64,000 bases of DNA from Minisyncoccota bacterium (GCA_031413715.1 JANOFO010000009.1:94866-158865); one strand, 5' to 3'; positions 10,482-63,642 are shown, counted from the stretch's first letter. A program made the numbers and translations. Notes: generated by a model not told the origin, from the letters alone.

Positions 10482-11063
10482 TCAAGAATTCAGCTTCTTC
10501 AAGGCCTTTGGAATTTTCTTGAAGTCTTTCATGAGCGTCTCGCGCATCCCGCCATTGTAAAGTGCTGCGGCGGGGTGGTAGAGTGGGAGGAAGGCCTGCT
10601 TTTTTCCAAGCTCGGGAATATTTTTTATAAGAAGCTTGCCGTGGATATCAGAGATCTTTTCAGTAGGGAAGAATCGAGTCATAGAGTGTCTGCCTAGGAA
10701 AATTATGAGTTTTGGTTCTATTATTTTAAGCTCGCTTATGAGCCAATCGTTACAGGCTGCTTTCTCTTCAGGCTCTGGATCCCGATTATTTGGCGGGCGA
10801 TACTTTACAATATTTGTAATATAAATATTTTCTCGCTTCATCTTTATGCTCTCTAGCATTTCTGCCAAGAACTTGCCTCCAGCACCGACGAATGGTCGGC
10901 CCTCAATGTCCTCATTTTTCCCTGGAGCCTCGCCTATGAACACAACTTCCGCTTCAGCGTTGCCATCGCCAAATACCGCCTGAGTGGCGGTCTTCTTCAA
11001 TGGACATGTACAATGCTCTTTCCAATAAGCATTTAGTTCATCAAGCTGTTCTCGTTTTGTCAT
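10482..11063 (-). CDS. Uracil-DNA glycosylase, family 4.
   Basis: Motif A is [21 protein letters not shown] and motif B is HPAAALYN. The protein is 193 aa. Its start overlaps the murA stop by 1 nt. Confidence 0.85.
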
Positions 11064-12583
11064 TACTTTAGTATTTTAATATTTGCACCGATAGAATTCA
11101 ATCGCTCGGCTATTTCTTCATATCCACGGTTGATCATGTATACATTACGAAGTATCGATGTGCCTTCGGCTGCAAGCATGCAGATGAGTATGACCATCGA
11201 TGGGCGTAGCGCCGGCGGGCAGACCACTTGGGCTGCTGTGAGGGGTGTGCCTCCTGTGATATAAGCACGGTGAGGGTCGGCAAGGGTTACATTGGCGCCG
11301 AGGCGGTTGAGTTCTGTGAAGTAGATTGCGCGATTCTCATACACCCAGTCGTGGATCATCGTTTGACCCTTGGCCACGATAGCTGCAGGTACAAAGAAGG
11401 GAAGATTGTCCATGTTTATGCCTGGATACGGATTCGCATGGATCTTATCTGGCGGAGCAGTAAGTGTACTTTCCATGATTTCGATATCAACTAGTTTTGT
11501 GCGATTATTATACGATTCATATTTTTTTAATATTTTATACTTGAGTCCCATCTTCGCAAGCTTGTAGAGCTCAAGAGCAAGGAAGTCTATCGGAGCGCGC
11601 GTGATGGTGAGGTTTGAATTTGTGACAATTGCTGCCGAGATGAACATCATAGATTCTATCGGATCCTCGCTATTGTGATATTCGATATTCTTATTTATAT
11701 TTTTCACCCCATGTATTTTTAGAGTCGTTGTGCCAATACCGGTAATTTTTACTCCGAGCTTGCTGAGGAAAAAGCAGATCTCCTGCACCATATAGTTTGC
11801 ACTTGCAAATTGCATTGTGGTAACTTTGTCGATGCCAGCTGCCGCAGTCAATATATTCTCACAAGCAGTATCGCCAGCTTCGTACATAATAATGTTCGCA
11901 GATTTGAGCTTTCCAACTGTGATATCATATTTATCACGACTTATCTTAATTCTTACTCCTAGTTCATGAAGGGCATATCTGTGTGCAGCGATCGTACGCT
12001 TGCCTAAGTTGCATCCTTCAGCGTTAGGAAGAGAGAAGGCATCAAGGTGATGAATAAGCGGACCGATAAGCATAAGGACGGAGCGAGTTCGGATTGCAGA
12101 TTTTACGTTTATATTTTTTAAATTGAATTTCTTCGGTGGTGTAATATGGACCGAATTCTGACCTATCCATTTTACTTTCACGCCGATACTCTCGAGTATT
12201 TCAATAACGCGATACACTTCTTCTATCCGAGCAATACCGTGGAGTGTTGTGATGCCACGATTGAGAAGAGAAGCGCACAAAAGGCCGACCGATCCATTCT
12301 TGGAATAATTTGTTGTAATACTACCCTTGAGTTTACGTCCTCCCTCAATTTGAAAGTCTGGGGAATCATTGACTGATACAATTTCATGCTCAAGAACCTT
12401 GCTTATCTTTGCCAAGAGCTCAGTTGTAAAATTCTGCTCGCCTTTCTCCATGCGAGGGATTGAGCTCTGCGAAGTACCGAGTGCCTTGGCAAGGGCGCCT
12501 TGAGTCATACCCCGACGTTCGCGGAGCTTCTTGATAAAGAAGCCTATTTTTTGAGTCTCTGTTAATTTCTTCATATTTCGCAT
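11063..12583 (-). CDS. murA: UDP-N-acetylglucosamine 1-carboxyvinyltransferase (MurA) with a fused N-terminal XRE-family helix-turn-helix domain.
   Basis: Residues about 14-70 are a Cro/C1-type HTH (RGMTQGALAKALGTSQSSIPRMEKGEQNFTTELLAKISKVL). The remainder is collinear with MurA: it has GSVGLLCASLLN and the catalytic-Cys loop NAEGCNLGKRTIAAHR, and it ends RGYEEIAERLNSIGANIKILK. The protein is 506 aa, against about 420 for a canonical MurA. Confidence 0.85.
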   Translation of the reverse strand: MRNMKKLTETQKIGFFIKKLRERRGMTQGALAKALGTSQSSIPRMEKGEQNFTTELLAKISKVLEHEIVSVNDSPDFQIEGGRKLKGSITTNYSKNGSVGLLCASLLNRGITTLHGIARIEEVYRVIEILESIGVKVKWIGQNSVHITPPKKFNLKNINVKSAIRTRSVLMLIGPLIHHLDAFSLPNAEGCNLGKRTIAAHRYALHELGVRIKISRDKYDITVGKLKSANIIMYEAGDTACENILTAAAGIDKVTTMQFASANYMVQEICFFLSKLGVKITGIGTTTLKIHGVKNINKNIEYHNSEDPIESMMFISAAIVTNSNLTITRAPIDFLALELYKLAKMGLKYKILKKYESYNNRTKLVDIEIMESTLTAPPDKIHANPYPGINMDNLPFFVPAAIVAKGQTMIHDWVYENRAIYFTELNRLGANVTLADPHRAYITGGTPLTAAQVVCPPALRPSMVILICMLAAEGTSILRNVYMINRGYEEIAERLNSIGANIKILK

Positions 12584-12584
12584 T

Positions 12585-12604
12585 TTATATCATATATGAT
12601 ATAA
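12585..12604. promoter_or_regulatory. 20-bp perfect palindrome TTATATCATATATGATATAA in the 28-bp murA/murB divergent intergenic region. It is a candidate operator for the HTH of the MurA fusion and overlaps candidate -10 elements.
   Basis: I checked the reverse complement by eye and the dyad is perfect. It is centred between the divergent start codons at 12583 and 12612, and TATAAT-like hexamers lie on both strands within it. Confidence 0.55.
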
Positions 12605-12611
12605 TTGCAAG

Positions 12612-13634
12612 ATGTTAGAGATTAAAGAAAATGTGGATATCAAAGAATACTGTACACTCCGAGTTGGAGGGCAGTTCCGCTATTTTGTAGAGCTAAATGA
12701 TCCACAGGATCTACCCTTGCTTTACGAATTTGCGAAAGAGAAAAATCTGCCAGTCTTTATATTGGGTGGCGGATCCAATCTAGTCTTTCCTGACGGTATT
12801 TTAAATACTGTGGCTGCCCGCATACAGTTTTGCGGACTTGAAATTTTATCTGATACGGATACACACGTAGATCTCAGGGTTGGAGCAGGAGAATCTTGGG
12901 ACTATATTGTCGAAAATACAGTAGAAGCAAATCTCTGTGGTATTGAGGCTATGTCGGCTATCCCCGGTACTATCGGCGCTACTCCAGTGCAGAATGTGGG
13001 TGCGTACGGCCAGGAAATAAAAGATGTCCTCCAGTCTGTAGATGTATTTGATACAAGCGATAGGGCTTTTAAAACTCTTACAAATGAAGAATGTCATTTT
13101 TCATATAGAAATAGCATATTTAAAAGTGATGCAAAGGGGAGATATGTGATAGTGGCAGTTACTATCAGGCTCGAGAAGCGGGCACCCTACATACCAAACT
13201 ATCCAGGCGTTAAAAAGTATTTCCTCGAGCAAAATATCAACAATCCTACGATACAGGAAATACGTCAAGCTATTATCGAGATCCGAAAGAATAAATTGCC
13301 TGATCCAAAAGATATACCAAGCGTAGGATCATTTTTCAAGAATAGTATCGTTTCAAATGACATAGCCAAGAATTTGAAAAATGAATATCCTGAGATGGTC
13401 TTGTTCCCACTCAATGAAAAAGAAACAAAAGTCCCATCAGGATTCCTTATTGAAAAAGCTGGGCTAAAAGGGCACAATTTTGGGACTATTTCTTCCTATC
13501 CTCATAACGCCATGGTTCTCGTCAATAATGGCGGGGCGACACGGGCAGATGTAGAGAGCACTCGAGATGAAATCGTAAAGATTATCTATGAAAAATTCGG
13601 CATCACCCTCGAGACTGAACCTGAGTTTGTGTAA
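12612..13634 (+). CDS. murB: UDP-N-acetylenolpyruvoylglucosamine reductase (MurB).
   Basis: The FAD-binding PCMH domain start is YCTLRVGGQFRYFVE...LPVFILGGGSNLVF. The protein is 340 aa and is divergent from murA. Confidence 0.85.
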   Translation: MLEIKENVDIKEYCTLRVGGQFRYFVELNDPQDLPLLYEFAKEKNLPVFILGGGSNLVFPDGILNTVAARIQFCGLEILSDTDTHVDLRVGAGESWDYIVENTVEANLCGIEAMSAIPGTIGATPVQNVGAYGQEIKDVLQSVDVFDTSDRAFKTLTNEECHFSYRNSIFKSDAKGRYVIVAVTIRLEKRAPYIPNYPGVKKYFLEQNINNPTIQEIRQAIIEIRKNKLPDPKDIPSVGSFFKNSIVSNDIAKNLKNEYPEMVLFPLNEKETKVPSGFLIEKAGLKGHNFGTISSYPHNAMVLVNNGGATRADVESTRDEIVKIIYEKFGITLETEPEFV

Positions 13635-18008: not shown

Positions 18009-18237
18009 ATCTTTAATTTTTTTGGTTCAAGAAATTGCATTCAATCTACATCTATTTTTATGTTTTGTCAAATCATTGTAGTAATTTCGCGTGTCTATTG
18101 ACTTATATATATTTTATGTTACCATAAAGGTAAATTTAAACTTTGTAATAATGGAGGTTGTTGGATGATCTAAGTTTCTTATTTTTTTTGAGATATTTAG
18201 ACCATCCAATTTAATCACCAATAGTAAACTTGAAAAA

Positions 18238-18510
18238 ATGAAGAAATTAACTCAATTTACAGAAGAAAATGCAATGTATATTGCAAAGTTATTAAACGAA
18301 GAATATGACAGATTCTATGTCTGGGAAGATAAAGTAATGATAGGTTTGAAGGAAAAAAATGGCAAAGAACAAAGTGTTTATATCTATCCAACTGGTCAGG
18401 TTTCTTTTCTTTATAATGACGGTGAACCAGGTGGTTCAGGTTATAAAGATATAAATACACTTCCTATTACTGATTATCTGCGCAAACAGGGTTTTGAATT
18501 TAAATACTAA
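18238..18510 (+). CDS. Hypothetical small protein.
   Basis: 90-aa ORF followed by a 10-bp stem terminator (CACCCTGCAA...TTGCAGGGTG plus a T-run) at about 18550..18586. Confidence 0.45.
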   Translation: MKKLTQFTEENAMYIAKLLNEEYDRFYVWEDKVMIGLKEKNGKEQSVYIYPTGQVSFLYNDGEPGGSGYKDINTLPITDYLRKQGFEFKY

Positions 18511-19046: not shown

Positions 19047-19955
19047 CTATGCGAGGAATTTTTCTATCGTCTTTAAGATTTTCCTCCCCTCGTTTCCATT
19101 CGTTGGATCAATCCACATAATTTTTTTATCTCTTTTAAACCATGTCTTTTGTCGTTTGGCATAGTGCCAGATCTCGATATTTAATTTCTCGATCATTTCT
19201 TGTTTTGTAAGTTTGCCTTGTAGATATAGGGCACCATATCGATATTCAAGACCCAGATCATTCATCCGCTTCCATGACATACCTTGTTCATGTAACTTTT
19301 GTATTTCACGGAGCATGCCCTTCTTGACCCGAGCAAGAAGGCGAGCGTGGATCCTTTCTTTCAGTATCTGATCTGGAAAAACAAGGCCTATTTTTAAGGG
19401 ATACCACACAGAATGATCCTGTGTGGTAAGTTTTGGTACAGAGCCAAGGGCTTTTGCAATTTCAATCGCACGGACAAGTCGAACTTTATTATTCTTATCT
19501 ATAGTTTTGGCTCTTTTCGGGTCTAGTTTTTTCATATACTCAAATAACACGATCGTAGAAAATGAGTATAACTTTTTCCTTAATTTTAAATTGGGTGGAA
19601 CTTCAGGAAGAATTATTCCGTTTACTACAGAGTCAATATAAAATCCTGTACCACCACAAAGTATCGGGACTTTACCTCGAGCAATAATTTCTTTTATTTT
19701 TATATCAGCGAGTTTTTTGAAATCACTAACCGAAAATACTTTCTTGGGATTGGCTACATCGAGCAAATGGTGGGGGACACCCCCCATCTCCTTCTTTGTA
19801 ATTTTGCCTGTACCTAGGTCCATACCCTTATAAACTTGCCGTGAATCAGCGGAAATAATTTCCCCGCCTATTTTCTTTGCAATATCCACTGCGAAATCAC
19901 TCTTGCCGGTGGCAGTTTGACCGAGGATTACAATGATTTTAGGTTTGTTTTTCAT
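19047..19955 (-). CDS. miaA: tRNA dimethylallyltransferase.
   Basis: The P-loop is IVILGQTATGKS and the SADSRQVYKGMDLGTGK motif is present. The protein is 302 aa. Confidence 0.9.
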   Translation of the reverse strand: MKNKPKIIVILGQTATGKSDFAVDIAKKIGGEIISADSRQVYKGMDLGTGKITKKEMGGVPHHLLDVANPKKVFSVSDFKKLADIKIKEIIARGKVPILCGGTGFYIDSVVNGIILPEVPPNLKLRKKLYSFSTIVLFEYMKKLDPKRAKTIDKNNKVRLVRAIEIAKALGSVPKLTTQDHSVWYPLKIGLVFPDQILKERIHARLLARVKKGMLREIQKLHEQGMSWKRMNDLGLEYRYGALYLQGKLTKQEMIEKLNIEIWHYAKRQKTWFKRDKKIMWIDPTNGNEGRKILKTIEKFLA

Positions 19956-20004
19956 CCTACTGCATATACTCGCATATAAAAGGGTTTTTTGCTATAATTC
20001 ACTC

Positions 20005-20235
20005 ATGTCAATCAAAAGTTTTATAACTGAAAAGCTTATTCGAGCGAAAATGAAGCACTTGCCTAAAGTTCAACAGGATATGTTCATCAAGCTTATAAAT
20101 GAAAATCCAGAGCTCTTCAAGCAGATCGCCGATGATACAAAAGTACTTACAAAGGGTGGTATGAGCGAAATGGCTGCGACCATGCAGGTCATGCGCAAGC
20201 ATCAGGCTGAAATCCAGAAGGCAATGATGGGATAA
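20005..20235 (+). CDS. Hypothetical small helical protein. The start is chosen at MSIKSF because the longer frame overlaps the miaA start.
   Basis: The ORF is 100 aa from 19933. The internal Met at 20005 avoids overlap with the divergent miaA. Confidence 0.4.
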   Translation: MSIKSFITEKLIRAKMKHLPKVQQDMFIKLINENPELFKQIADDTKVLTKGGMSEMAATMQVMRKHQAEIQKAMMG

Positions 20236-20446
20236 CTAATCCATATTATTAAATTAAACACTCCAGACTACAAAAATACTGCGAAATTATACATTGACTA
20301 GCAGTTTTTTTGTGTTAGTATATTGGCAATAATGGATCTTTGAAAATACTGTTTTAGTCTTGTATTTATTGGGTTATCTTTGCCCCTCTTTTAAAGAAGT
20401 GGGGTTAAGATAACCCAATAAAATCAAAAACCTAAAACAATTAACC

Positions 20447-23400
20447 ATGGAAGTAAAAAACATCGAAGCATTCACAGTGGATCATATGACCCACATGTGC
20501 AATCTCATCCATGGTTCACAGAACTATGGATACCAAACACCCAAAGAAGGCAATGTTCAGGATCTTGTAAGAGAACTTTTGAATGATACTTTGCCGATTG
20601 AGCATGCCATTCATGCTCCATTACTAAAATACAATAATGTGAGAGTAGCTTTTGTTGAAAATTTAAAAAAAGCGCTCAAACCTTACTTGCTTGGTATGGG
20701 TATCAAATGGAGAAAGAGCCAAGATGAATGTATCGAAGCGATTCTTAAATCAATGGATCGAGGATATGTCAGACTTGTAAATGAATTACCAACAGGCGTT
20801 GGTAAATCATTAATCGAAGGTGCTCTTGTAAAAGCAGCGCTTAACACAATGAAACAGTTTGGCCTTGATTACGAAATTCACATTATCACTTCCCGAGTTG
20901 CAATTGCCGGGCAGTTAATCTATGAAGAACTGCCTGATGATGAAAAGGATGATGAACCTCTCGAAATGGGAAAACCAGGCGATGTGAGAATCTGGTGCCC
21001 AGAACTTCACGATGATCAGATCCGTATCCTTGCTGGAAAAAGCGGTAGTAGTAAAAAGGAACTCCAAAAGGATTCTGTCCTTACTGTTAGCACTTATCAA
21101 GGATTGCGTGTCGGTAGAATTGTTGAGCATTTCCGAAAACCAGTGTTTATGATTATCTGTGATGAATCTCACCATACAACTGAGAGAGTCACAATGCATC
21201 TTGAGCAGATGAAATCGTCTTTTGCTTTTGCCTTTAGTGCAACAGTGCTTGGGCCAAATAGGGATCCGTTTATATACTTTGAGCGTGTCGAAAGACCCGA
21301 AATTATCAAAGAAAAGAAAACCTACATGGACTACTTGTGCTATTACAAAAGTATGGGCGAATCTGTTTATGACAAGGAGCTAAAACCAATACGTTGGATT
21401 GATGGAAAAGTTAAGATTAACGTTTCAGACGTCAAAACTCGTCCAGGAATGGGAGTCTATGATATTTTCAACAATGAGTCTGTGGCGCAAGCCATCGCTC
21501 AAAATGCCGATCTCGCTGTGCAGATAATTGAAGAAGCTTTTTTGACAGAGCATGTAGGATTAGAGCTCTCTAATTCAATGCCTATTTGGAGACGAAGTGG
21601 TCTTGTAGCTGTTGAAAGAGTGAACTTCGCAATTGACTGCGTAGAACTTTGCAATAAAATTCTGCCAGAAAAGCTAAAGAAAAAGTACGGTGAAGATGCT
21701 TATTTCAGAGCGGGGTATGTAGATGGAAAAATGACAAAAGATGAGTATAAAAAGGCTATCAAAGACTTTAAGGCAGGACGGATAACACTTCTATTCTCTG
21801 TAAAAAAAATAGGGGAGGGTGTTAATCTACTCTGTGCAAATTTACTCATCTTACTCAAAGCTTTCGGACTTGGATCAATGTGGGAACTCAAGCAATGGCT
21901 TGGACGTCCTGCTAGGGTAGATCCTGATAACCCTCTAGGAGATATGGTTGTGCTTGACTCGGTCTATCAAAGTGACAAACACTTGCTTGCAAGCATCTTT
22001 GGTATTTTTGGTCAATCAACATCACTCTCTGGAGGATTAGTGGCTGGTTGGGGTAACTCTTATGAACTTGAAAAAAAGATCATCGGGCTACTTCGTACCT
22101 GTAAAACCATTACAGAGCTTTGGAATATGTTGTCAGTTCAAGAGCAAGACCTTTTTCCTTTTTTACGGGACAAGGTGATTGAAGATCAGTTGAAGTCCGA
22201 GCGAAGTGAAGAATCTCATCCTCACCTGTACAAAAGTGGACGGGTGTTTGATCTTAAAAGTGTCCATTTTGTAGAACGTGACGATATCCAATTTTCGATG
22301 TCATTGGGCAATCCTGAAGCAATGGCTAAATATGCACTTGAAACATTAATTGATCAGGGATTTAACACAGCCGAGAGGTTGAGAGCGGTGAGAGATCACT
22401 CACTTCTTTTATGGTCTCGCCGACGTTTAGGAGCATTCCGTGACGGTCTTACGATGGTCAATTTAGTGCTAGGGATGAATGAAAAGGCTTTAATAGTTCC
22501 TCACATGACATCATTTATCGAACTCATGAAGAAAATTGGTCTTCCAATAGGGAGGATACTTGTCAGAAGAGAAATTGAACCCGTTGTGGAAAATAGGGCA
22601 AAAACCACTACTACTAATGGGGTGTCTGGTCGCCAAAAAGCTGAACACCTTAATACCAAAAAAAAGGAAATACGATCAGGTGTATTTACCAAGTTGCTCA
22701 AAGTACAGGGAAAAGATGGTTCTGTTGAATCGCTCTATGAACTATGTCGGGATCTATTTGGCATAGAGCCAGTAATCACAGTTATTACAAAAGATTTCTA
22801 TACTAAAACTAATCTACATCGAGCCCAGGCGGTAATTATATTACCTGACGGGCATAAGTATTCTAGTACAGTAAGGGAGTCACATAATGAAGAAACTGCG
22901 AAGCATTCCTGTGCAGCAGAACTCGAACAATCGATACATGATCTTTTTAGGAAGAAAGAGATAAAATTATACAAGGGAAGTCCTTTGTTCATGACCTATC
23001 TTAAACTTCTAAGGATTATTATATGTGAGTATGGATTTGGAGAAATTGATTACACGCCTATTATAGAAGCGAATGGAGTGAAATCAATACAGGCAAGCGT
23101 GGCAAATAAGAAGGGAAGAATACCAGGAGGTATTGTATCCCATCGTGAGATTGAAATTGCAAAACAACACGCCGATATAACGCTGTGCTTCGAGTTATTA
23201 AAATTGTTCCCTGGTTTTTATCAGGATGAACCTTTCATGGAAACTCATCATAAGAATGATTTAGATATCTTGTGTCGAAAAATGAATCTAACTTTTAAAA
23301 AAGAGTATGTCAAAATTAGATCAAATGGTTATGATCTCCATAAGGCAACTATTACTTGTACGATCTATAAGAAAGTTGGTTTTGGCATTAATCAAATAGG

Positions 23401-23458
23401 AGCGATGGAAAAAGCATCGGCCGGAATGATTTATGAATTAAAAAAGTTCGATAACTAA
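20447..23458 (+). CDS. Large DExH-box SF2 helicase with an unknown central region and three C-terminal dsRBD-like modules.
   Basis: Motif I is LPTGVGKS, motif II is ICDESHH, motif III is FSAT, motif V is LLFSVKKIGEGVNL and motif VI is QWLGRPAR. C-terminal modules carry dsRBD-like alpha-2 signatures: EETAKHSCAAELEQ, REIEIAKQHADITLCFELL and GAMEKASAGMIYEL. The protein is 1003 aa. A structured 5' leader lies upstream (see finding at 20367..20420). Confidence 0.65.
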   Translation: MEVKNIEAFTVDHMTHMCNLIHGSQNYGYQTPKEGNVQDLVRELLNDTLPIEHAIHAPLLKYNNVRVAFVENLKKALKPYLLGMGIKWRKSQDECIEAILKSMDRGYVRLVNELPTGVGKSLIEGALVKAALNTMKQFGLDYEIHIITSRVAIAGQLIYEELPDDEKDDEPLEMGKPGDVRIWCPELHDDQIRILAGKSGSSKKELQKDSVLTVSTYQGLRVGRIVEHFRKPVFMIICDESHHTTERVTMHLEQMKSSFAFAFSATVLGPNRDPFIYFERVERPEIIKEKKTYMDYLCYYKSMGESVYDKELKPIRWIDGKVKINVSDVKTRPGMGVYDIFNNESVAQAIAQNADLAVQIIEEAFLTEHVGLELSNSMPIWRRSGLVAVERVNFAIDCVELCNKILPEKLKKKYGEDAYFRAGYVDGKMTKDEYKKAIKDFKAGRITLLFSVKKIGEGVNLLCANLLILLKAFGLGSMWELKQWLGRPARVDPDNPLGDMVVLDSVYQSDKHLLASIFGIFGQSTSLSGGLVAGWGNSYELEKKIIGLLRTCKTITELWNMLSVQEQDLFPFLRDKVIEDQLKSERSEESHPHLYKSGRVFDLKSVHFVERDDIQFSMSLGNPEAMAKYALETLIDQGFNTAERLRAVRDHSLLLWSRRRLGAFRDGLTMVNLVLGMNEKALIVPHMTSFIELMKKIGLPIGRILVRREIEPVVENRAKTTTTNGVSGRQKAEHLNTKKKEIRSGVFTKLLKVQGKDGSVESLYELCRDLFGIEPVITVITKDFYTKTNLHRAQAVIILPDGHKYSSTVRESHNEETAKHSCAAELEQSIHDLFRKKEIKLYKGSPLFMTYLKLLRIIICEYGFGEIDYTPIIEANGVKSIQASVANKKGRIPGGIVSHREIEIAKQHADITLCFELLKLFPGFYQDEPFMETHHKNDLDILCRKMNLTFKKEYVKIRSNGYDLHKATITCTIYKKVGFGINQIGAMEKASAGMIYELKKFDN

Positions 23459-23584
23459 TTGGCAAAAGTGCTAGTCATTCAAAATTCATAGACCTTGCTG
23501 TTCTCAGCAAGGTCTATTTTTATATATAAAAAAGCCGATGAGTTAACATCGGCTTTTCGAGCATACAATATAATATTTCTATGC

Positions 23585-25075
23585 TTATTTTGATAACAAC
23601 AATGCCTGCATCAAGGATCCTGCAAAAACTGGCCCTCGCTCCTTTACTATTTCTGTAAGCAGAGCATCTGAAATTTCAAGCTTCAGCCCCCTCTTTTTGA
23701 ATTCAATAAGGATTTCATCATCAGAGGTGGGCTTTTTCAGATTACGTTTAGTGAATTCATCGGTAATAACATCATTTGAAATCAGGGTAATCAAACCTCT
23801 GTTTTCAAATGCCGTTATTAAATGATTATCGGGGATCTGACTCAATACAGACAATAATGGCATTTGGGTAGCGATAGTGACAAGCTGTTCTTTTTTATCA
23901 ATCACTTGTTCTTCCGTTTTTTCTGCCTTGATCTTTTTTTCTATTACAATTACAGGCGCAGTGCTTACTTTACCGATGAGTGAAAATTTTAGCCATTTAC
24001 TATCATCTCGGCTTTTTTCTACTAACCATTCTGGTTTTAATTCCCTTGCTTTAGTAATTAAGGCATCACGATCTCCAGAAATACCAACACGGTACACATA
24101 AGGGACTTTCTCATTCAAACCGTCTGTTTCATCGCCTATTTTTCTTATGAAATCCCGGACTTGTTTGTAGAAGGTTCCCTTTGAAACATCCTCTTGGGTT
24201 GGTTGAGACGATCCTGTTGTTTCGGTAGATATCTTTTTGTAGCAGGATTTGATGTCCTCGAATGTGAATGGGTAATCTTGTGTGCGCTTGAATATTAGGG
24301 TTTGATTATTTTGAGTACAATCAAGCCCGTATTCAACACAAAGCAAGCCGGCCCTCTCTGCTATTTCTTTTGATTCAAAACCGATGATGAGTTCGTGTGT
24401 TTCACTATAGCCGCTCGTATGAATCATAATACCGAAGGCTTCGGTGATTACTTTTCTGAGATAGTCTTCGTTCGGATCAGGTTGATTTTGCAAATCATCA
24501 TTAGCGCTTGGTGAACCATGCGCCTGTCCGTTCGTCGGTGTTATTACTGAAGAAAGACGTATAAAGATATCTTCGCCATGACGTTCAAATTTGAACTGTT
24601 TAAGGTTTAGATGGGTGCTTAGGAATGTAGTTACTGTCCCAGCCATTTGAGTGGTTTGAACTCTGATAAAGTCAGGACCTTGGCAAATTCTATTACTAAG
24701 GTTTCTACCTTGTAAAAACTTTTTAATTTCAAGAAAGATCAAGCCGACGGCATCTTTTTCTGGTTTTTTACCTGGAACTTCTGTTTTTAGATTTGTCACA
24801 GGGGTTAAATTGTTTACATCATCAAAAATAATGAATGTTGTCCTCTCATCTTTTATTACTGGAAAATTGAAGAGGCTTAATCTCTTCATCCAGTCAGCTC
24901 TTTCATTAGGATGATAGAAATCAATAACTGGGCATAAGAACTTACCCATGTTCCTGTTCGTGAATTTGTGGCTATTTTTTCCTTCAAGAGCTAAAAAAGC
25001 TTTGAGTTCAGTAATGGTGATTTCAGAAATGCGGTTATAGTCATCTATGGACTGTAAGGGTTTGAGTTGTGGCAT
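23585..25075 (-). CDS. Hypothetical 496-aa protein, convergent with the helicase.
   Basis: It is a long ORF with a good coding look. I recognise no motifs. Confidence 0.55.
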   Translation of the reverse strand: MPQLKPLQSIDDYNRISEITITELKAFLALEGKNSHKFTNRNMGKFLCPVIDFYHPNERADWMKRLSLFNFPVIKDERTTFIIFDDVNNLTPVTNLKTEVPGKKPEKDAVGLIFLEIKKFLQGRNLSNRICQGPDFIRVQTTQMAGTVTTFLSTHLNLKQFKFERHGEDIFIRLSSVITPTNGQAHGSPSANDDLQNQPDPNEDYLRKVITEAFGIMIHTSGYSETHELIIGFESKEIAERAGLLCVEYGLDCTQNNQTLIFKRTQDYPFTFEDIKSCYKKISTETTGSSQPTQEDVSKGTFYKQVRDFIRKIGDETDGLNEKVPYVYRVGISGDRDALITKARELKPEWLVEKSRDDSKWLKFSLIGKVSTAPVIVIEKKIKAEKTEEQVIDKKEQLVTIATQMPLLSVLSQIPDNHLITAFENRGLITLISNDVITDEFTKRNLKKPTSDDEILIEFKKRGLKLEISDALLTEIVKERGPVFAGSLMQALLLSK

Positions 25076-25284
25076 GTTTTTTATTTTAATGGATTAATTG
25101 GTTTGTTGTTTATTTTAAAATCCTGATAGATCCTAAAATAAACAACAAACCAAGTCCGACAGAATTTATTACATTATATAACATTTCCTCAATAAGTCAA
25201 TCTATTCTTACTAGCTAAAATTTTTTGAAAATTATTTCATATAAGTTTGAAAATAAGCATATTTCTGGTATATTCATTCTATAT

Positions 25285-26400
25285 ATGAGTCTTTCAATTG
25301 GAATTGTAGGTTTGCCGAACGTGGGTAAGTCCACGCTTTTTAATGCGCTGACTAAAAAGGGTGTACCTGCCGAGAATTATCCATTCTGCACTATTGATCC
25401 ATCGGTAGGTATTGTGCCTGTGCCTGATGACCGGCTCTGGAAGCTATCAGAATTCTCTAAGTCTGCGAAGACCATTCCTGCTGTAATTGAGTTCGTAGAT
25501 ATCGCTGGCCTTGTAAAAGGGGCCTCGAAAGGTGAAGGTTTGGGGAATAAATTTCTAGCCAACATTCGCGAGGTTGATGCGATTTTTGAAATGGTACGTA
25601 TCTTTCCGCTCAAGAATGAAAAAGGTGGCAATGAAATTATCCACGTGTACGGTGATATTGATCCGCTTCGCGATATTGAAGTTATAAATCTTGAGCTTAT
25701 ATTGGCTGACTTTGAAACAGTTTCTAAGCGAAGAAATAATCTTGTTCGTGAAATTAAAAAAGGGGACAAAGAAGCAGTTATAGAAGATGGCGCACTGCTT
25801 AAACTCGAGCAGGCTTTCGAGAAAGGCCAGCTCGCCAATACTGTCTCGTTTGATGAGAAAGAAAAGGAAAAAATAAAAATGCTGAATCTCTTGACCCTGA
25901 AGCCATTTATTTACGGACTGAATAAAAAAGGTGGAGCGAAAAATCTAGATGAAACAAATCCAGAGATATTCAAGGAACTCACAGACTATATAGAAAAATC
26001 TGGTTCTAGATATGTAGTCCTCGATGCTAAAATTGAAGAAGAACTCAAAGATTTTGAAGGTGATGAGAAAGAAACTTTCCGTAGGGAATTAGGCGGAGAA
26101 AACGATGGGATTAATAATTTGATAAGCGAAGGTTACAAACTGCTTGGTCTCGATACCTACTTTACAACGGGCGAAGATGAAACTCGTGCCTGGACTATCG
26201 CCCATGGTTCTACTGCTCCGATTGCGGGTACGGCGATCCATACTGACTTTAAGGATAAATTTATCCGTGCAGAGGTTGTCTTTTGGAAAGACCTCCTTGA
26301 TGCAGGAAGTTACGGTGAAGCCCGTTCTAAGGGCAAAGTGCGAACAGAAGGGAAGGAGTATATTGTAAAGGATGGAGATGTAGTAGAGTTTAGAATATAA
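25285..26400 (+). CDS. ychF: Ribosome-binding ATPase YchF (Obg-family GTPase/ATPase).
   Basis: The G1 motif is MSLSIGIVGLPNVGKSTLFNALT, and a C-terminal TGS domain is present. The true start is probably the Met at 25285, not the track start at 25225. Confidence 0.9.
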   Translation: MSLSIGIVGLPNVGKSTLFNALTKKGVPAENYPFCTIDPSVGIVPVPDDRLWKLSEFSKSAKTIPAVIEFVDIAGLVKGASKGEGLGNKFLANIREVDAIFEMVRIFPLKNEKGGNEIIHVYGDIDPLRDIEVINLELILADFETVSKRRNNLVREIKKGDKEAVIEDGALLKLEQAFEKGQLANTVSFDEKEKEKIKMLNLLTLKPFIYGLNKKGGAKNLDETNPEIFKELTDYIEKSGSRYVVLDAKIEEELKDFEGDEKETFRRELGGENDGINNLISEGYKLLGLDTYFTTGEDETRAWTIAHGSTAPIAGTAIHTDFKDKFIRAEVVFWKDLLDAGSYGEARSKGKVRTEGKEYIVKDGDVVEFRI

Positions 26401-28200: not shown

Positions 28201-31200
28201 ATGGGAATGAAAAAATACGATCATACAAAAATCGAAAAGAAGTGGCAAAAGGAATGGGACAAAGAAAAGCTTTACAAAGTTGAAGATAGTGTTACAGGCA
28301 AAGAGAATTTCTATCAGCTTGTTGAATTCACGTATCCATCTGGCAATCTCCACGTAGGGCACTGGTACGCTTTTGCAGTTCCAGATATTTTTGCTCGTTA
28401 TAAACGCATGCAAGGGTTCAACGTACTTTACCCGATGGGCTTTGACGCATTTGGATTACCTGCTGAAAATGCAGCTATTAAAGAGAACGCAGATCCGAAA
28501 GTTTGGACTTATGAAAAAATGAATGCGATGCGGATCCAGCTTAAATCAATGGGTGCGATATTTGATTGGGATCGTGAGATCGTGTCATGCGATCCACAAT
28601 ACTACAAATGGACGCAATGGATGTTCAATAAATTTTTAGAGCATGATTTAGTTTACCGTGATATTACAAAAGTAAACTGGTGTCCCAAAGACCAGACTAT
28701 TCTTGCCAACGAACAAGTTGTCGATGGGCATTGTGAACGCTGCGGTGCGGAAGTAGAGCAAAGGAATCAAGAGCAATGGATGCTCCGCATTACCAAATAT
28801 GCCGACCGGCTTATCGATGACCTCGATGCACTAAATTGGCCAGAAGAAATCAAAGCGGCTCAAAAAAACTGGATTGGCAGAAGCGAAGGAAGCGAAATTG
28901 AATTTCATATACGACAGAGCCCATCCCCGACCCTTCCCAAAGGGAAGGGAGAAATACCTGGTTATATGACTTCAAATGATGAAATTTATGAAACTGTTCA
29001 AGAGAGAGCAGTAGAAATGCGAAAAGCTCCGACTAAAGCAGAGGAAATTTTGTGGGATTCATTAAGAGGGAACAAAATTGGTTATCACATAAGGAGACAG
29101 CATGTAATCGATAGATTTGTTGTGGACTTTGCTTGCTTAAAAGAAAATCTTGTTATTGAGATAGATGGTGATATTCACGACTTACAGAAAGAAAAAGACG
29201 AGGAAAGAACAAATATTCTTAAAAACCTAGGGTTTAGGGTTATTCGGTTTAAAAATGACGAAGTAATAAAAAATTTAGATGGAGTAATAAATAAAATCTT
29301 AAATGAGTTAAAGAACCCTTCCCTTGGGGAAGGGCAGGGATGGGCTTCATCTGAAATAATAAAAGTATTTACGACGCGAGCGGATACTCTATTTGGTGTG
29401 ACATATATTGTCCTTGCTCCAGAACATGAGCTAGTAGAAAGTTTAAAATCTAAAGTCGAAAGTGAAGAAAATAGAAAACAAATTGAAAAATATATTTCAG
29501 ATACGAAGAAAAAATCCGAACTTGACCGCAAGCAGCAGAAAGAAAAAACTGGGGTAGAACTCAAAGGAGTAAAGGCGGTAAATCCTGCAAATGGTGAAGA
29601 AGTGCCGATCTGGGTGGCGGACTACGTGCTTGCAGGTTACGGAACAGGAGCGATCATGGCTGTACCGGCTCATGACGAGCGGGATTTTGAATTTGCTAAG
29701 AAATACAATTTGCCGATCAAGAGAGTTGTGGAGCAAAAATTCATAGCGACTGATAGTCCTATGCATTCTGAACTTGAAATTCCCGCTACATATAGAAATG
29801 CCATTTGTGCAATAATTCGTAATCCCAAAGATGATACATATCTCTGCAGCGTCTGGAAAGATATTCATTGCCACGGATTGATAACAGGCGGAGTGGAAGA
29901 GGATGAAGATATTGTTGAAGGAGCCTTGCGTGAGATATATGAAGAAACTGGATATAAAAATTTAAAATTTATAAGGAATCCTGATATAGCAATTCATACT
30001 TTTTTTTATCATCGTAAAAAAGAAGTAAATAGATGGGCCCGATTTCAATATCTCTTTTTTGATCTGATAGACGAAGTTCAGGACTCTATCGACGAGAATG
30101 AATTCGCAATACATGATGTTGTATGGAAATCTAAAGACGAACTCAATGATTTCTTTTCTGTTGTAGAAGGAGAGTTTTCTCTTACATTAATAGAAAATAA
30201 TGGAGACTATGTATATACAGGTGAAGGTATTCTCGGGAATTCTGGGAGATTTAATGGCATGGATTCAGAAGAAGCCCGCACAAAGATTACCGAAGCAGTC
30301 GGAGGGAAAATGGTAAAAACATATAGATTGCGCGATTGGGGGATTTCGCGCCAGCGGTATTGGGGTACGCCGATCCCTATCGTCTATGATCCCCAAGGGA
30401 AAGCCCATCCTGTGCCGGACGAGCATTTGCCGTGGATTTTACCTGATGATGTTGATCACAAGCCGTCAGGTGTGGCACCGCTTGCTAAAAGCAAGGAACT
30501 CTTTATGCGAACCGAGAAAATTTTTGGTGAAGGTTGGAAGCCAGAAGTGGAGACGATGGATACGTTTGTGGATTCTTCATGGTATTTCTACAGATATCTT
30601 GATAATAAAAATAGTAAAACATTTGCTGATAAAAAACACCGAGACGCATGGATGCCGATTGATCTTTATATGGGTGGTGCTGAGCATACTACTATGCATT
30701 TACTGTATTCACGTTTTTGGGTGAAAGCCATGCATGATCTAGAAATGGTGAAAGAAATAGAAAGCTATAAAGTGCGTCGCAATCGTGGGCTTATCTTGGG
30801 ACCTGACGGCAATAAAATGTCGAAATCCAAAGGCAATGTTGTTAATCCAGATGAGATTGTCGAGAGGTTAGGCGCTGACACTGTGCGTATGTATCTGGCT
30901 TTCATGGGGCCATACGGAGTTACGGTCAATTATCCATGGGATCCAAATGGAGTGGTGGGCGTACGACGGTTTCTTGAGCGGGTCTGGAAGTTGAAAGACA
31001 AGTTGAAAGAGAATAAAGAAGGCACTTCTTTCTTTATTGAGAAATCCACTCATCTGGCAATAAAAAATATAACTGAATATATGGAAAGTTATAAGTTTAA
31101 TACAGCAGTCTCGCAAATGATGATTCTTTTAAATTATTTAGAAAAACAAGATGTTACTATCGAGATTTATAAAACATTGTTGCAGCTTCTTTCGCCATTT

Positions 31201-31488
31201 GCTCCGCACATGACCGAAGAGCTCTGGCGAGATCTTGGTGAAAAGAAATCTATACACCTAACACCATGGCCGACATGGGATAAAGATAAGATTATTGATA
31301 CTGTGTTTAAAATCGTAGTCCAAGTGAATGGTAAGGTCCGCACCCAATTTGAAGTAGAAAGCAGTATGAGCGAAGAAGATATCAAGATTAAAGTCTTGGC
31401 AGATCAAGCCATACGATCATGGACAGAAGGCAAGGAAATAAAACGCGTCATATATGTAAAAGATAGACTTGTTAACATTGTCGTCTAG
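28201..31488 (+). CDS. leuS: Leucyl-tRNA synthetase carrying two inserted accessory domains, DUF559 (Vsr-like endonuclease fold) and NUDIX.
   Basis: The HIGH motif is HVGH and the KMSKS motif is KMSKSKGN. LeuS-specific segments include YPMGFDAFGLPAEN, AVPAHDERDFEFAKKYNLPI and YRLRDWGISRQRYWGTPIP. The protein is 1095 aa against about 860 typical. Insert 1 (about residues 243-380) matches DUF559 (T-AEEILWDSLRG...RRQ...DFAC...IEIDGDIH...DEERT..L...GFRVIRF-NDEV). Insert 2 (about residues 520-665) has a full Nudix box, GGVEEDEDIVEGALREIYEETGY. Confidence 0.9.
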   Translation: MGMKKYDHTKIEKKWQKEWDKEKLYKVEDSVTGKENFYQLVEFTYPSGNLHVGHWYAFAVPDIFARYKRMQGFNVLYPMGFDAFGLPAENAAIKENADPKVWTYEKMNAMRIQLKSMGAIFDWDREIVSCDPQYYKWTQWMFNKFLEHDLVYRDITKVNWCPKDQTILANEQVVDGHCERCGAEVEQRNQEQWMLRITKYADRLIDDLDALNWPEEIKAAQKNWIGRSEGSEIEFHIRQSPSPTLPKGKGEIPGYMTSNDEIYETVQERAVEMRKAPTKAEEILWDSLRGNKIGYHIRRQHVIDRFVVDFACLKENLVIEIDGDIHDLQKEKDEERTNILKNLGFRVIRFKNDEVIKNLDGVINKILNELKNPSLGEGQGWASSEIIKVFTTRADTLFGVTYIVLAPEHELVESLKSKVESEENRKQIEKYISDTKKKSELDRKQQKEKTGVELKGVKAVNPANGEEVPIWVADYVLAGYGTGAIMAVPAHDERDFEFAKKYNLPIKRVVEQKFIATDSPMHSELEIPATYRNAICAIIRNPKDDTYLCSVWKDIHCHGLITGGVEEDEDIVEGALREIYEETGYKNLKFIRNPDIAIHTFFYHRKKEVNRWARFQYLFFDLIDEVQDSIDENEFAIHDVVWKSKDELNDFFSVVEGEFSLTLIENNGDYVYTGEGILGNSGRFNGMDSEEARTKITEAVGGKMVKTYRLRDWGISRQRYWGTPIPIVYDPQGKAHPVPDEHLPWILPDDVDHKPSGVAPLAKSKELFMRTEKIFGEGWKPEVETMDTFVDSSWYFYRYLDNKNSKTFADKKHRDAWMPIDLYMGGAEHTTMHLLYSRFWVKAMHDLEMVKEIESYKVRRNRGLILGPDGNKMSKSKGNVVNPDEIVERLGADTVRMYLAFMGPYGVTVNYPWDPNGVVGVRRFLERVWKLKDKLKENKEGTSFFIEKSTHLAIKNITEYMESYKFNTAVSQMMILLNYLEKQDVTIEIYKTLLQLLSPFAPHMTEELWRDLGEKKSIHLTPWPTWDKDKIIDTVFKIVVQVNGKVRTQFEVESSMSEEDIKIKVLADQAIRSWTEGKEIKRVIYVKDRLVNIVV

Positions 31489-63521: not shown

Positions 63522-63593
63522 GGCCCCATCGTCTAACGGTTAGGACATCGCCTTCTCAAGGCGGTAATCAGAGTTCGATTCTCTGTGGGGTCA
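63522..63593 (+). tRNA. tRNA-Glu (anticodon CTC).
   Basis: The sequence is GGCCCCATCGTCTAACGGTTAGGACATCGCCTTCTCAAGGCGGTAATCAGAGTTCGATTCTCTGTGGGGTCA. Confidence 0.85.
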
Positions 63594-63642
63594 CACATAC
63601 TTAAAAAGACTAGACTGCTCTAGTCTTTTTAAGTATGTGTGA
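63591..63642. repeat. 24-bp perfect inverted repeat with a 4-nt loop, overlapping the last 3 nt of tRNA-Glu.
   Basis: The sequence is TCACACATACTTAAAAAGACTAGA CTGC TCTAGTCTTTTTAAGTATGTGTGA. Confidence 0.7.

Follow-up and report, generated by a model that had tools for sequence, protein, structure and literature searches.

A predicted helicase with three C-terminal double-stranded RNA-binding folds and its partner protein form a conserved gene pair with related leader hairpins in Saccharibacteria

The stretch of DNA analyzed here, called the window below, comprises 64,000 nucleotides (nt) from a Minisyncoccota bacterium (GCA_031413715.1 JANOFO010000009.1:94866-158865), and the subject of this work is a pair of genes within it that encode a predicted helicase of 1003 amino acids (aa) and a partner protein of 496 aa. 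The helicase ends in three domains predicted to adopt the double-stranded RNA-binding domain (dsRBD) fold, homologs of the two genes adjoin each other in every locus in which this could be assessed, and hairpins related to one another precede both genes. Taken together, the pair and its related hairpins suggest a self-regulated RNA-handling module of a kind undescribed in bacteria.

Features of the gene pair

Both open reading frames (ORFs) were found where the original prediction, made from the sequence alone, had placed them: the helicase ORF at 20447-23458 (+) and the partner ORF at 23585-25075 (-), in convergent orientation. The spacer between them is 126 nt long and contains a separate terminator for each gene, and the GC content of the region is unremarkable. 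The features of the region are the following, where R1 is the covariance model described with the leader hairpins and pLDDT is the predicted local distance difference test score of an AlphaFold2 model.

18155..18215, + strand: third, weaker copy of the hairpin, found with R1; ends 22 nt before the ATG of a 90-aa ORF (18238-18510)
20294..20321, + strand: putative sigma-70-like promoter of the helicase gene, from a pattern scan (TTGACT, 16 nt, TAGTAT, TG-extended)
20363..20424, + strand: helicase leader hairpin (fold, covariation, R1)
20447..23458, + strand: helicase gene, 1003 aa (ORF; 11 full-length orthologs, 41-58% identity)
20447..20701, + strand: N-terminal helical region, residues 1-85, of no known family (conserved in orthologs; helices in the model; no Pfam match)
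20702..21256, + strand: RecA-like domain 1, residues 86-270, with motifs I (GVGKS), II (DESH) and III (SAT) (Pfam ResIII; invariant motif residues)
21257..21601, + strand: family-specific insertion between the RecA-like domains, residues 271-385 (kept through most of the wider family; low pLDDT)
21602..21946, + strand: RecA-like domain 2, residues 386-500, with motif VI (QxxGRxxR) (Pfam Helicase_C; profile matches)
21947..22561, + strand: helical middle region, residues 501-705, of no known family (conserved; no profile match in PDB or Pfam)
22562..22711, + strand: variable linker rich in K, R, S and T, residues 706-755 (poorly aligned, length-variable columns; pLDDT <50)
22721..22951, + strand: predicted dsRBD-fold module 1, residues 759-835, net acidic (AlphaFold2 model)
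22982..23206, + strand: predicted dsRBD-fold module 2, residues 846-920 (model; beta1-beta2 loop of 2 residues; one conserved K in the AK..A motif)
23246..23443, + strand: predicted dsRBD-fold module 3, residues 934-999, GFGI..HA.EKAA..L..EL (model; weak profile matches)
23488..23517, + strand: intrinsic terminator of the helicase gene (13-bp stem, then a T-run)
23529..23558, - strand: intrinsic terminator of the partner gene (12-bp stem, then a U-run; -22.6 kcal/mol, z -5.8)
23585..25075, - strand: partner gene, 496 aa, no known domain, with C-terminal copies of an SD..L..E...RG motif (ORF; homologs adjoin the helicase)
25100..25151, - strand: partner leader hairpin, 26-bp stem, ends 24 nt before the ATG (fold, covariation, R1)
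25173..25200, - strand: putative sigma-70-like promoter of the partner gene, from a pattern scan (TTGACT, 16 nt, TATAAT; 11/12 matches)

The TTGAC(A/T) ... TGTTA(G/A)T(A/T)T layout also lies 5' of the helicase gene in the homologous loci compared, and a TTGAC(T/A) box lies 5' of the partner gene in 9/9 loci, followed in most of them by a TGTTATATAA-like element.

Conservation and genomic context of the pair

The original prediction had treated the two genes as a possible module and proposed co-occurrence across genomes as a check. A homolog of the partner, at 24-52% identity, adjoins the helicase in 9 of the 9 testable loci, which represent four genomic contexts and two orientations (convergent in eight loci, tandem in one), so that the genes form a conserved pair adjacent in several unrelated surroundings. 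The contexts, with the loci identified by our own labels, are the following.

miaA-orf100 / pair / ychF: the window and L005, convergent
RmuC / pair / GIY-YIG genes: L001, convergent
rpsS-diacylglycerol kinase / pair / rplB, inside the S10 ribosomal operon: L003, L010 and L011, with L008 and L013 consistent, convergent
murE / pair: L009, tandem, partner then helicase

These observations show that adjacency of helicase and partner is obligate within one clade of Candidatus Saccharibacteria; the helicase relatives in L014 and L015, which are more distant, lack a partner in the flanking sequence, that of L015 being limited to 221 nt upstream. The proposal of a two-gene module is supported because the C-terminal repeats model as dsRBDs, as described below, and because homologs of the two genes co-occur.

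Two arrangements deserve a separate description. Five related genomes carry the pair together with a diacylglycerol-kinase gene between rpsS and rplB in an otherwise conserved S10 operon (L003, 7402-13933; L010, 1518-8370; L011, 387-7201; also L008 and L013). In L009 (6084-11003) each of the tandem genes has a promoter-like site of its own, and neither has a leader hairpin.

Leader hairpins

The helicase gene had been predicted to have a structured leader, and it does. The hairpin at 20363-20424 comprises approximately 27 bp (about 22 bp plus an apical stem), lies 3' of the promoter-like site and ends 22 nt before the ATG; its folding energy is -42.5 kcal/mol (z -7.4), and 0 of 200 shuffled sequences were as stable. 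The partner gene has a hairpin of its own at 25100-25151 (-), with a folding energy of -32.9 kcal/mol (z -8.5). Across the loci, the hairpins end 19-31 nt 5' of the start codons and lie 3' of conserved promoters; they are kept in 9 of 10 helicase leaders and 8 of 9 partner leaders, L009 being the locus with neither.

The alignments of these hairpins carry clear covariation. Compensatory double changes are seen at 12 of 22 pairs in the helicase leader and 13 of 21 in the partner leader, and 93.9% and 92.8% of the cells, respectively, are paired, values that were reached in 0 of 500 shuffles for either leader. Sliding the partner strand of the stem by 1-3 columns lowers pairing to 36-54% in the helicase leader and 38-55% in the partner leader. 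The hairpins of the two genes also align with each other, with a common 5' arm of approximately TTG.TT...CTYAG and a G.U wobble at the equivalent position in 8/9 helicase leaders and 8/8 partner leaders.

We built the covariance model R1 from all 17 hairpins and ran it on 194 kb of sequence, comprising the window and the loci. The model found only the leader sites of the module and one new site, with scores for the window of 57.5 bits (sense) and 42.8 bits (antisense) at the helicase leader and 45.2 bits at the partner leader; sense scores were about 6-29 bits above antisense scores. Because the wobble is conserved, G-C to G-U changes are tolerated and the scores are biased towards one strand, the element is better understood as an RNA than as a DNA operator. 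It is also unlike an intrinsic terminator, because neither leader hairpin has a trailing U-tract and each gene has a terminator elsewhere. Rfam 15 contains no family that matches at its gathering score, and the sub-threshold matches to microRNA and small RNA models reflect the hairpin shape. We propose the leader hairpin as a candidate for a new cis-regulatory RNA family with clear covariation support.

The new R1 site, at 18155-18215 (+), scores 27.4 bits (E 5e-4), folds at -26.1 kcal/mol (z -3.9) and has a G.U at the equivalent position. The 90-aa ORF that it precedes has no known domain and no Pfam match, and no homolog of it was found in the homologous loci compared; it may belong, as a further member, to a regulon marked by the hairpin. 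A direct scan of the window gave four hairpins with a stem of at least 18 bp, three of which belong to the leader-hairpin family. The fourth, at 63591-63642 with a 24-bp stem, overlaps the last bases of a tRNA-Glu gene (63522-63594), extends downstream of it and is unrelated in sequence to the leader hairpins.

A metagenome scan with the pattern TTGGGTTATYTYAG-N-ATAACCCAA was discarded as unspecific: it returned 11 loci of unrelated palindromes, none with the helicase or the partner. Metagenome contigs L016-L020 and L024 contain a near-perfect palindrome, GAATTTTTGGGTTATTTCAGGCGG...CCGCCTGAAATAACCCAAAAATTC, which is intergenic in several GC-rich contigs and unrelated to the helicase. The 14 nt that this palindrome has in common with the helicase leader hairpin are probably a chance match.

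Helicase core

The description of the first protein as a DExH helicase of superfamily 2 (SF2) was borne out. Pfam ResIII matches residues 86-267 (E 1.1e-11) and Helicase_C residues 409-491 (E 8.4e-10), both above their curated cut-offs, and the scan of the ORF gave nothing beyond these two families. The motifs quoted in the original prediction are present, and the following residues are invariant in 11 orthologs: G117, G119, K120 and S121 of motif I, D239-E240-S241-H242 of motif II, S264-A265-T266 of motif III, and Q483, R487 and R490 of motif VI. With two RecA-like domains carrying motifs I, II, III and VI, the protein belongs to SF2 by its sequence and is a predicted ATPase.

The family is a small one. 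Among 5.8 billion clusters searched, only 11 family proteins were found, each of approximately 1000 aa, full-length and 41-58% identical, and in their alignment conservation extends to the N-terminal region, the insertion between the RecA-like domains, the helical middle region and the C-terminal 250 residues. When 1.84 billion representatives were searched exhaustively with a profile, 34 proteins had E <1e-30. The domain map of these wider relatives has RecA1, the insertion, RecA2 and the first segment of the middle region in common, and several of them retain recognizable copies of the C-terminal modules.

Outside the family, the similarities are generic. NCBIfam, PADLOC and PHROGs gave generic helicase matches only (fragments of RecG, DinG and Mfd; type IV DinG; PbeA), together with phrog_16 'DNA helicase' at 1.3e-20. 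Profile matches to the PDB were restricted to RecA2 (RadD at 4e-7, eIF4A-III, RecG, Mfd, UvrB and XPB), and the helical middle region had no match in the PDB or Pfam by profile search. The AlphaFold2 model of the full-length protein is of low confidence (pLDDT 63.5; predicted template modelling score, pTM, 0.34), and Foldseek searches with this low-confidence model returned generic SF2 proteins (Mot1, Brr2, MDA5/LGP2, UvsW, XPB, Mfd and RadD).

A distant member of the helicase family, P0041 (1162 aa), is fused, or called as fused, N-terminally to sigma-70 regions 2 and 4, and in L014 a 695-aa sigma-70 gene (10525-12612) lies two genes from the helicase relative, with RNase III close by. The fusion and this neighborhood may hint at a link to transcription.

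C-terminal domains

Modelling of the C-terminus, as the original prediction had proposed, gave three alpha-beta-beta-beta-alpha folds. The AlphaFold2 model of residues 752-1003, computed from the 11-sequence alignment, is confident (pLDDT 88.7, pTM 0.82) and contains three such units at roughly residues 759-835, 846-920 and 934-999, with structural matches that include the dsRBDs of MLE, DHX9 and RNase III. By topology and by similarity to solved dsRBDs, the predicted structure of the modules is that of the dsRBD fold, and the model shows the C-terminus as a compact array of three such domains. The helices EETAKHSCAAELEQ, IAKQHADITLCFELL and EKASAGMIYEL, which had been put forward as carriers of the alpha-2 signature, are indeed the C-terminal helices of the three modelled modules; the signature itself is looser than had been claimed, and the lysines of KKxAK are not conserved in it.

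Sequence profiles detect the modules only faintly. No match to Pfam dsrm (PF00035) above the gathering score was found in the window helicase or its 10 orthologs, and the cut-off of 23 bits was passed by distant family members only, P0018 (24.1 bits) and P0022 (25.2 bits). Modules 1 and 2 weakly detect each other (hhalign E 7e-5), and the in-register profile matches of module 3 to the dsRBDs of PKR and DHX9 are weak (E ~0.3). Because the relatives P0018 and P0022 pass the dsrm cut-off, and because P0018 retains a KKIAK motif, the modules are best regarded as genuine, diverged dsRBDs.

Partner protein

Homologs of the partner were collected from the neighborhoods of the helicase genes. In every locus with an available flank, an ORF of 437-604 aa without Pfam matches adjoins the helicase, and all of these ORFs are homologous to the 496-aa protein of the window (BLASTP E 1e-32 to 4e-72, 25-34% identity). 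Searched with a profile of these homologs, each locus gave a single copy, and no further copy was found in the loci. The original description of this protein as an orphan must consequently be given up in its strict sense, as homologs adjoin the helicase across the clade. The partner had no match in Pfam, PADLOC, PHROG, NCBIfam or the PDB, an hhalign comparison with the dsRBD array showed no relation, and word-index searches with the partner sequence and a 9-sequence profile returned only the window protein and P0013.

The invariant polar residues in the alignment of the partners are few (E31, R138, Q140, E168 and R480). The C-terminus carries one to three copies of a motif of approximately SDxxLxxExxxRG, which appears to resemble the first helix of SAP/HeH motifs. 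Because of the few conserved polar residues and this SAP/HeH-like motif, the partner looks unlike an enzyme. It diverges faster than the helicase, with a mean identity among loci of 28% against 47%; in the closest pair after the window and L005, namely L011 and L013, the identities are 35% for the partner and 71% for the helicase. Across pairs of loci, helicase identity and partner identity are correlated (r = 0.62). Judged from these comparisons, the partner represents a small, fast-evolving family that appears confined to the Saccharibacteria clade carrying the pair.

Proposed function and alternatives

Our preferred explanation, which we hold tentatively and at somewhat less than an even chance, is that the pair is a lineage-specific, two-protein RNA-handling module of Candidatus Saccharibacteria, with a duplex-targeted helicase, a non-enzymatic partner and feedback through the hairpins. 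The dsRBD array would dock the helicase on approximately two turns of A-form duplex, the DExH core would then unwind or remodel the docked RNA, and the partner would serve as a non-enzymatic accessory or adaptor subunit. The leader hairpins would mimic the substrate of the module, and the module, or a competing RNase III, could therefore feed back on both mRNAs. Such feedback would act on translation or stability and could extend, in this genome, to a third small ORF. In the cell, the module would act on long RNA duplexes, for instance processing stems, antisense pairs or foreign double-stranded RNA (dsRNA).

Several points weigh against this explanation. None of the three modules conserves the canonical dsRNA-contact residues (the GPxH loop and KKxAK): module 1 is acidic, the beta1-beta2 loop has a length of 2 residues in modules 2 and 3, KKxAK is reduced to at most one K/R, and the full set of alpha-1 E/Q, GPxH and KKxAK at the start of alpha-2 is found in none. 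By sequence, the core best matches enzymes of the ResIII type, a group with many members that act on DNA (RadD, XPB, RecG and Mfd; also phrog_16). As to the hairpins, they may be read by RNase III or another factor rather than by the proteins of the module itself. They are dispensable, because L009 keeps both genes without either hairpin. The start region is A-rich and is not consistently paired or sequestered across loci, and a simple model in which leader structure occludes the ribosome-binding site was dropped for this inconsistency.

A role in defence against phages or mobile elements, in which the helicase would sense foreign dsRNA through its dsRBDs, the partner would be an effector or specificity subunit, and the hairpins would keep expression low, is in our view rather unlikely. 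A helicase together with an unknown partner is a common layout of defence systems, and the rarity and patchiness of the family (11 ortholog clusters; 34 of 1.8 billion representatives with E <1e-30), the occurrence of the pair as a self-contained cassette in four different contexts and the much faster divergence of the partner would all suit such a role. However, in PADLOC-DB 2.0 the helicase has weak generic helicase matches (type IV DinG at 2.5e-9 over ~80 residues; PbeA) and the partner has none, so that no single system is matched by both components. The partner also lacks nuclease- or toxin-like conserved residues, the neighbors are housekeeping genes rather than defence islands (five loci lie inside the S10 ribosomal operon), and the surroundings showed no integrase or other gene for mobility. 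Neither a pattern scan nor tblastn against the phage records in the collections searched gave viral relatives. The sensing or defence function suggested in the original prediction is accordingly unsupported by the PADLOC matches, the neighborhoods and the phage searches.

The pair could instead be a clade-specific housekeeping factor for RNA maturation, acting in ribosome biogenesis or on the stems of rRNA and tRNA precursors, which its dsRBDs would recognize. Bacterial dsRBD proteins are classically tied to rRNA processing through RNase III, and the pair lies between or beside rpsS and rplB in L003, L008, L010, L011 and L013 and elsewhere beside miaA and ychF or near Obg. This adjacency to translation genes carries little weight, because the reduced genomes of the Candidate Phyla Radiation (CPR) are dense in translation genes. 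Moreover, the pair is absent from most Saccharibacteria (11 clusters), which would be odd for a core ribosome factor, and it has its own promoters and terminators and is not co-transcribed with the ribosomal genes. We judge this explanation improbable.

An assignment to DNA repair or recombination would follow the ResIII, RadD and XPB type of the core and would take the dsRBD-fold modules as protein-protein or DNA-binding adaptors, and the leader hairpins as ordinary elements for mRNA stability or for RNase III, without a connection to the activity of the two proteins. Against it stand the more canonical dsrm domains of the family relatives and the presence of the same unusual type of hairpin specifically on both genes, which is hard to ascribe to coincidence; there is in our estimate only a small chance that it is correct. 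That the pair is a mobile cassette with the two outer hairpins as transposition or recombination ends was rejected as highly improbable: convergence does put related hairpins at the outer edges of a pair that occupies different genomic sites, but conserved promoters lie outside the hairpins, so conservation runs past them, a transposase, HUH or integrase domain was looked for and not found, the wobble and the strand-biased scores point to RNA, L009 has the genes without hairpins, and the GC content is not anomalous.

The RNA-handling module that we favor also has a bolder form, to which we give a low probability: the pair may be a self-limiting dsRNA-surveillance system of Saccharibacteria and a functional analog of the eukaryotic dsRBD-helicase sensors (Dicer/TRBP, RIG-I-like proteins and DHX9). 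The triple-dsRBD helicase would measure and engage RNA duplexes of approximately 22 bp, the fast-evolving partner would couple this engagement to an output, and the common leader hairpins with their conserved G.U would be built-in decoy or feedback sites. If true, the hairpins would mark out a small regulon and represent a new class of cis-regulatory RNA.

To our knowledge, dsRBDs in bacteria are essentially confined to RNase III, and we know of helicase-dsRBD fusions as a eukaryotic feature (DHX9/MLE, and Dicer with TRBP); our literature search found no description of a bacterial helicase-dsRBD family of this kind. Here a bacterial family has the eukaryote-type grammar of helicase and dsRBDs, together with a dedicated partner and, on the family's own mRNAs, a matched RNA element. 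It provides a compact and testable setting in which to ask how helicases are directed to defined duplexes by dsRBD arrays, whether helicase-dsRBD pairings arose independently in bacteria, and how ultra-small symbiotic bacteria of the CPR control or police dsRNA.

Neighboring genes

Between miaA and the helicase gene, a 100-aa ORF (19933-20235, +) is conserved in L005, the closest relative, alone (35% identity); its own terminator-like hairpin overlaps the helicase promoter region, and the ORF stands outside the module elsewhere. On the other side of the pair, ychF (25225-26400, +) has 391 aa from a mechanically called TTG start, and its L005 ortholog has 370 aa. The TTG start probably overcalls the gene, the true start likely being an internal Met before GIVGLPNVGKST; a shorter ychF would leave a longer divergent promoter region common to ychF and the partner gene. 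The leucyl-tRNA synthetase at 28201-31488 (+), 1095 aa, contains two inserted domains: DUF559, of the Vsr-like endonuclease fold (266-370, E 6e-33), and NUDIX (531-648, E 7e-13).

Comparison with known systems

The helicase resembles DHX9 (RNA helicase A) and its Drosophila counterpart MLE in being a DExH-type SF2 helicase fused to tandem dsRBDs. The dsRBDs of MLE recognize specific roX stem-loops, which the MLE helicase remodels. In DHX9, two dsRBDs lie N-terminally and the core is of the DEAH/RHA type, with HA2 and OB domains; the protein described here, in contrast, has three C-terminal dsRBD-fold modules, a ResIII-type core, an insertion between the RecA-like domains, a helical middle region and a bacterial host. 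No Pfam match to HA2 or OB_NTP_bind was found in the helicase, and it does not classify as a DEAH/RHA enzyme.

With respect to the Dicer and RIG-I-like proteins, the array differs from the three-dsRBD cofactors of Dicer (TRBP, PACT, Loquacious and R2D2) in being fused to the helicase rather than carried on a separate protein. RIG-I-like and Dicer helicases have a Hel2i insertion with pincer; the helicase described here has a conserved insertion of ~115 aa between its RecA-like domains, modelled at pLDDT <50, and the MDA5 and LGP2 matches given by Foldseek come from the low-confidence full-length model (pLDDT 63.5). A Pfam search of the helicase for the C-terminal domain (CTD) of RIG-I, RNase III or PAZ gave no match. 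The comparison with DHX9, Dicer and RIG-I made in the original prediction is better taken as an analogy of domain grammar than as a statement of membership, as no HA2 or OB, RNase III, PAZ or RIG-I CTD was found in the protein and its dsRBDs are C-terminal.

RNase III, the usual bacterial host of the dsRBD, has the dsRBD fold in common with the helicase. The E. coli RNase III gene, rnc, is autoregulated through a leader hairpin, to which the leader hairpins described here are parallel. Unlike RNase III, the helicase has no RNase III catalytic domain and three dsRBD folds rather than one, and the canonical H and K residues absent from the helicase modules are retained in the dsRBD of the Saccharibacteria RNase III found in L014.

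Like Hachiman (HamAB) and Gabija, the pair combines a large SF2 helicase with a rapidly diverging second protein in a self-contained cassette at variable locations; unlike these, its helicase has generic helicase hidden Markov model matches only, its partner has no DUF1837 or nuclease signature, and it does not lie in defence islands. The ResIII-type DNA helicases RadD, XPB and UvsW are among the closest sequence and fold matches of the RecA core, but they carry no dsRBDs, and the N-terminal, insertion and middle regions of the protein have no counterpart in them.

On its predicted domains, the protein is an SF2 helicase with dsRBD-fold domains, and its likeness to DHX9/MLE and to Dicer with TRBP is one of domain grammar only. 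The fusion of a helicase to dsRBDs is already known in kind; the bacterial host, the dedicated partner and the common leader RNA element are new here.

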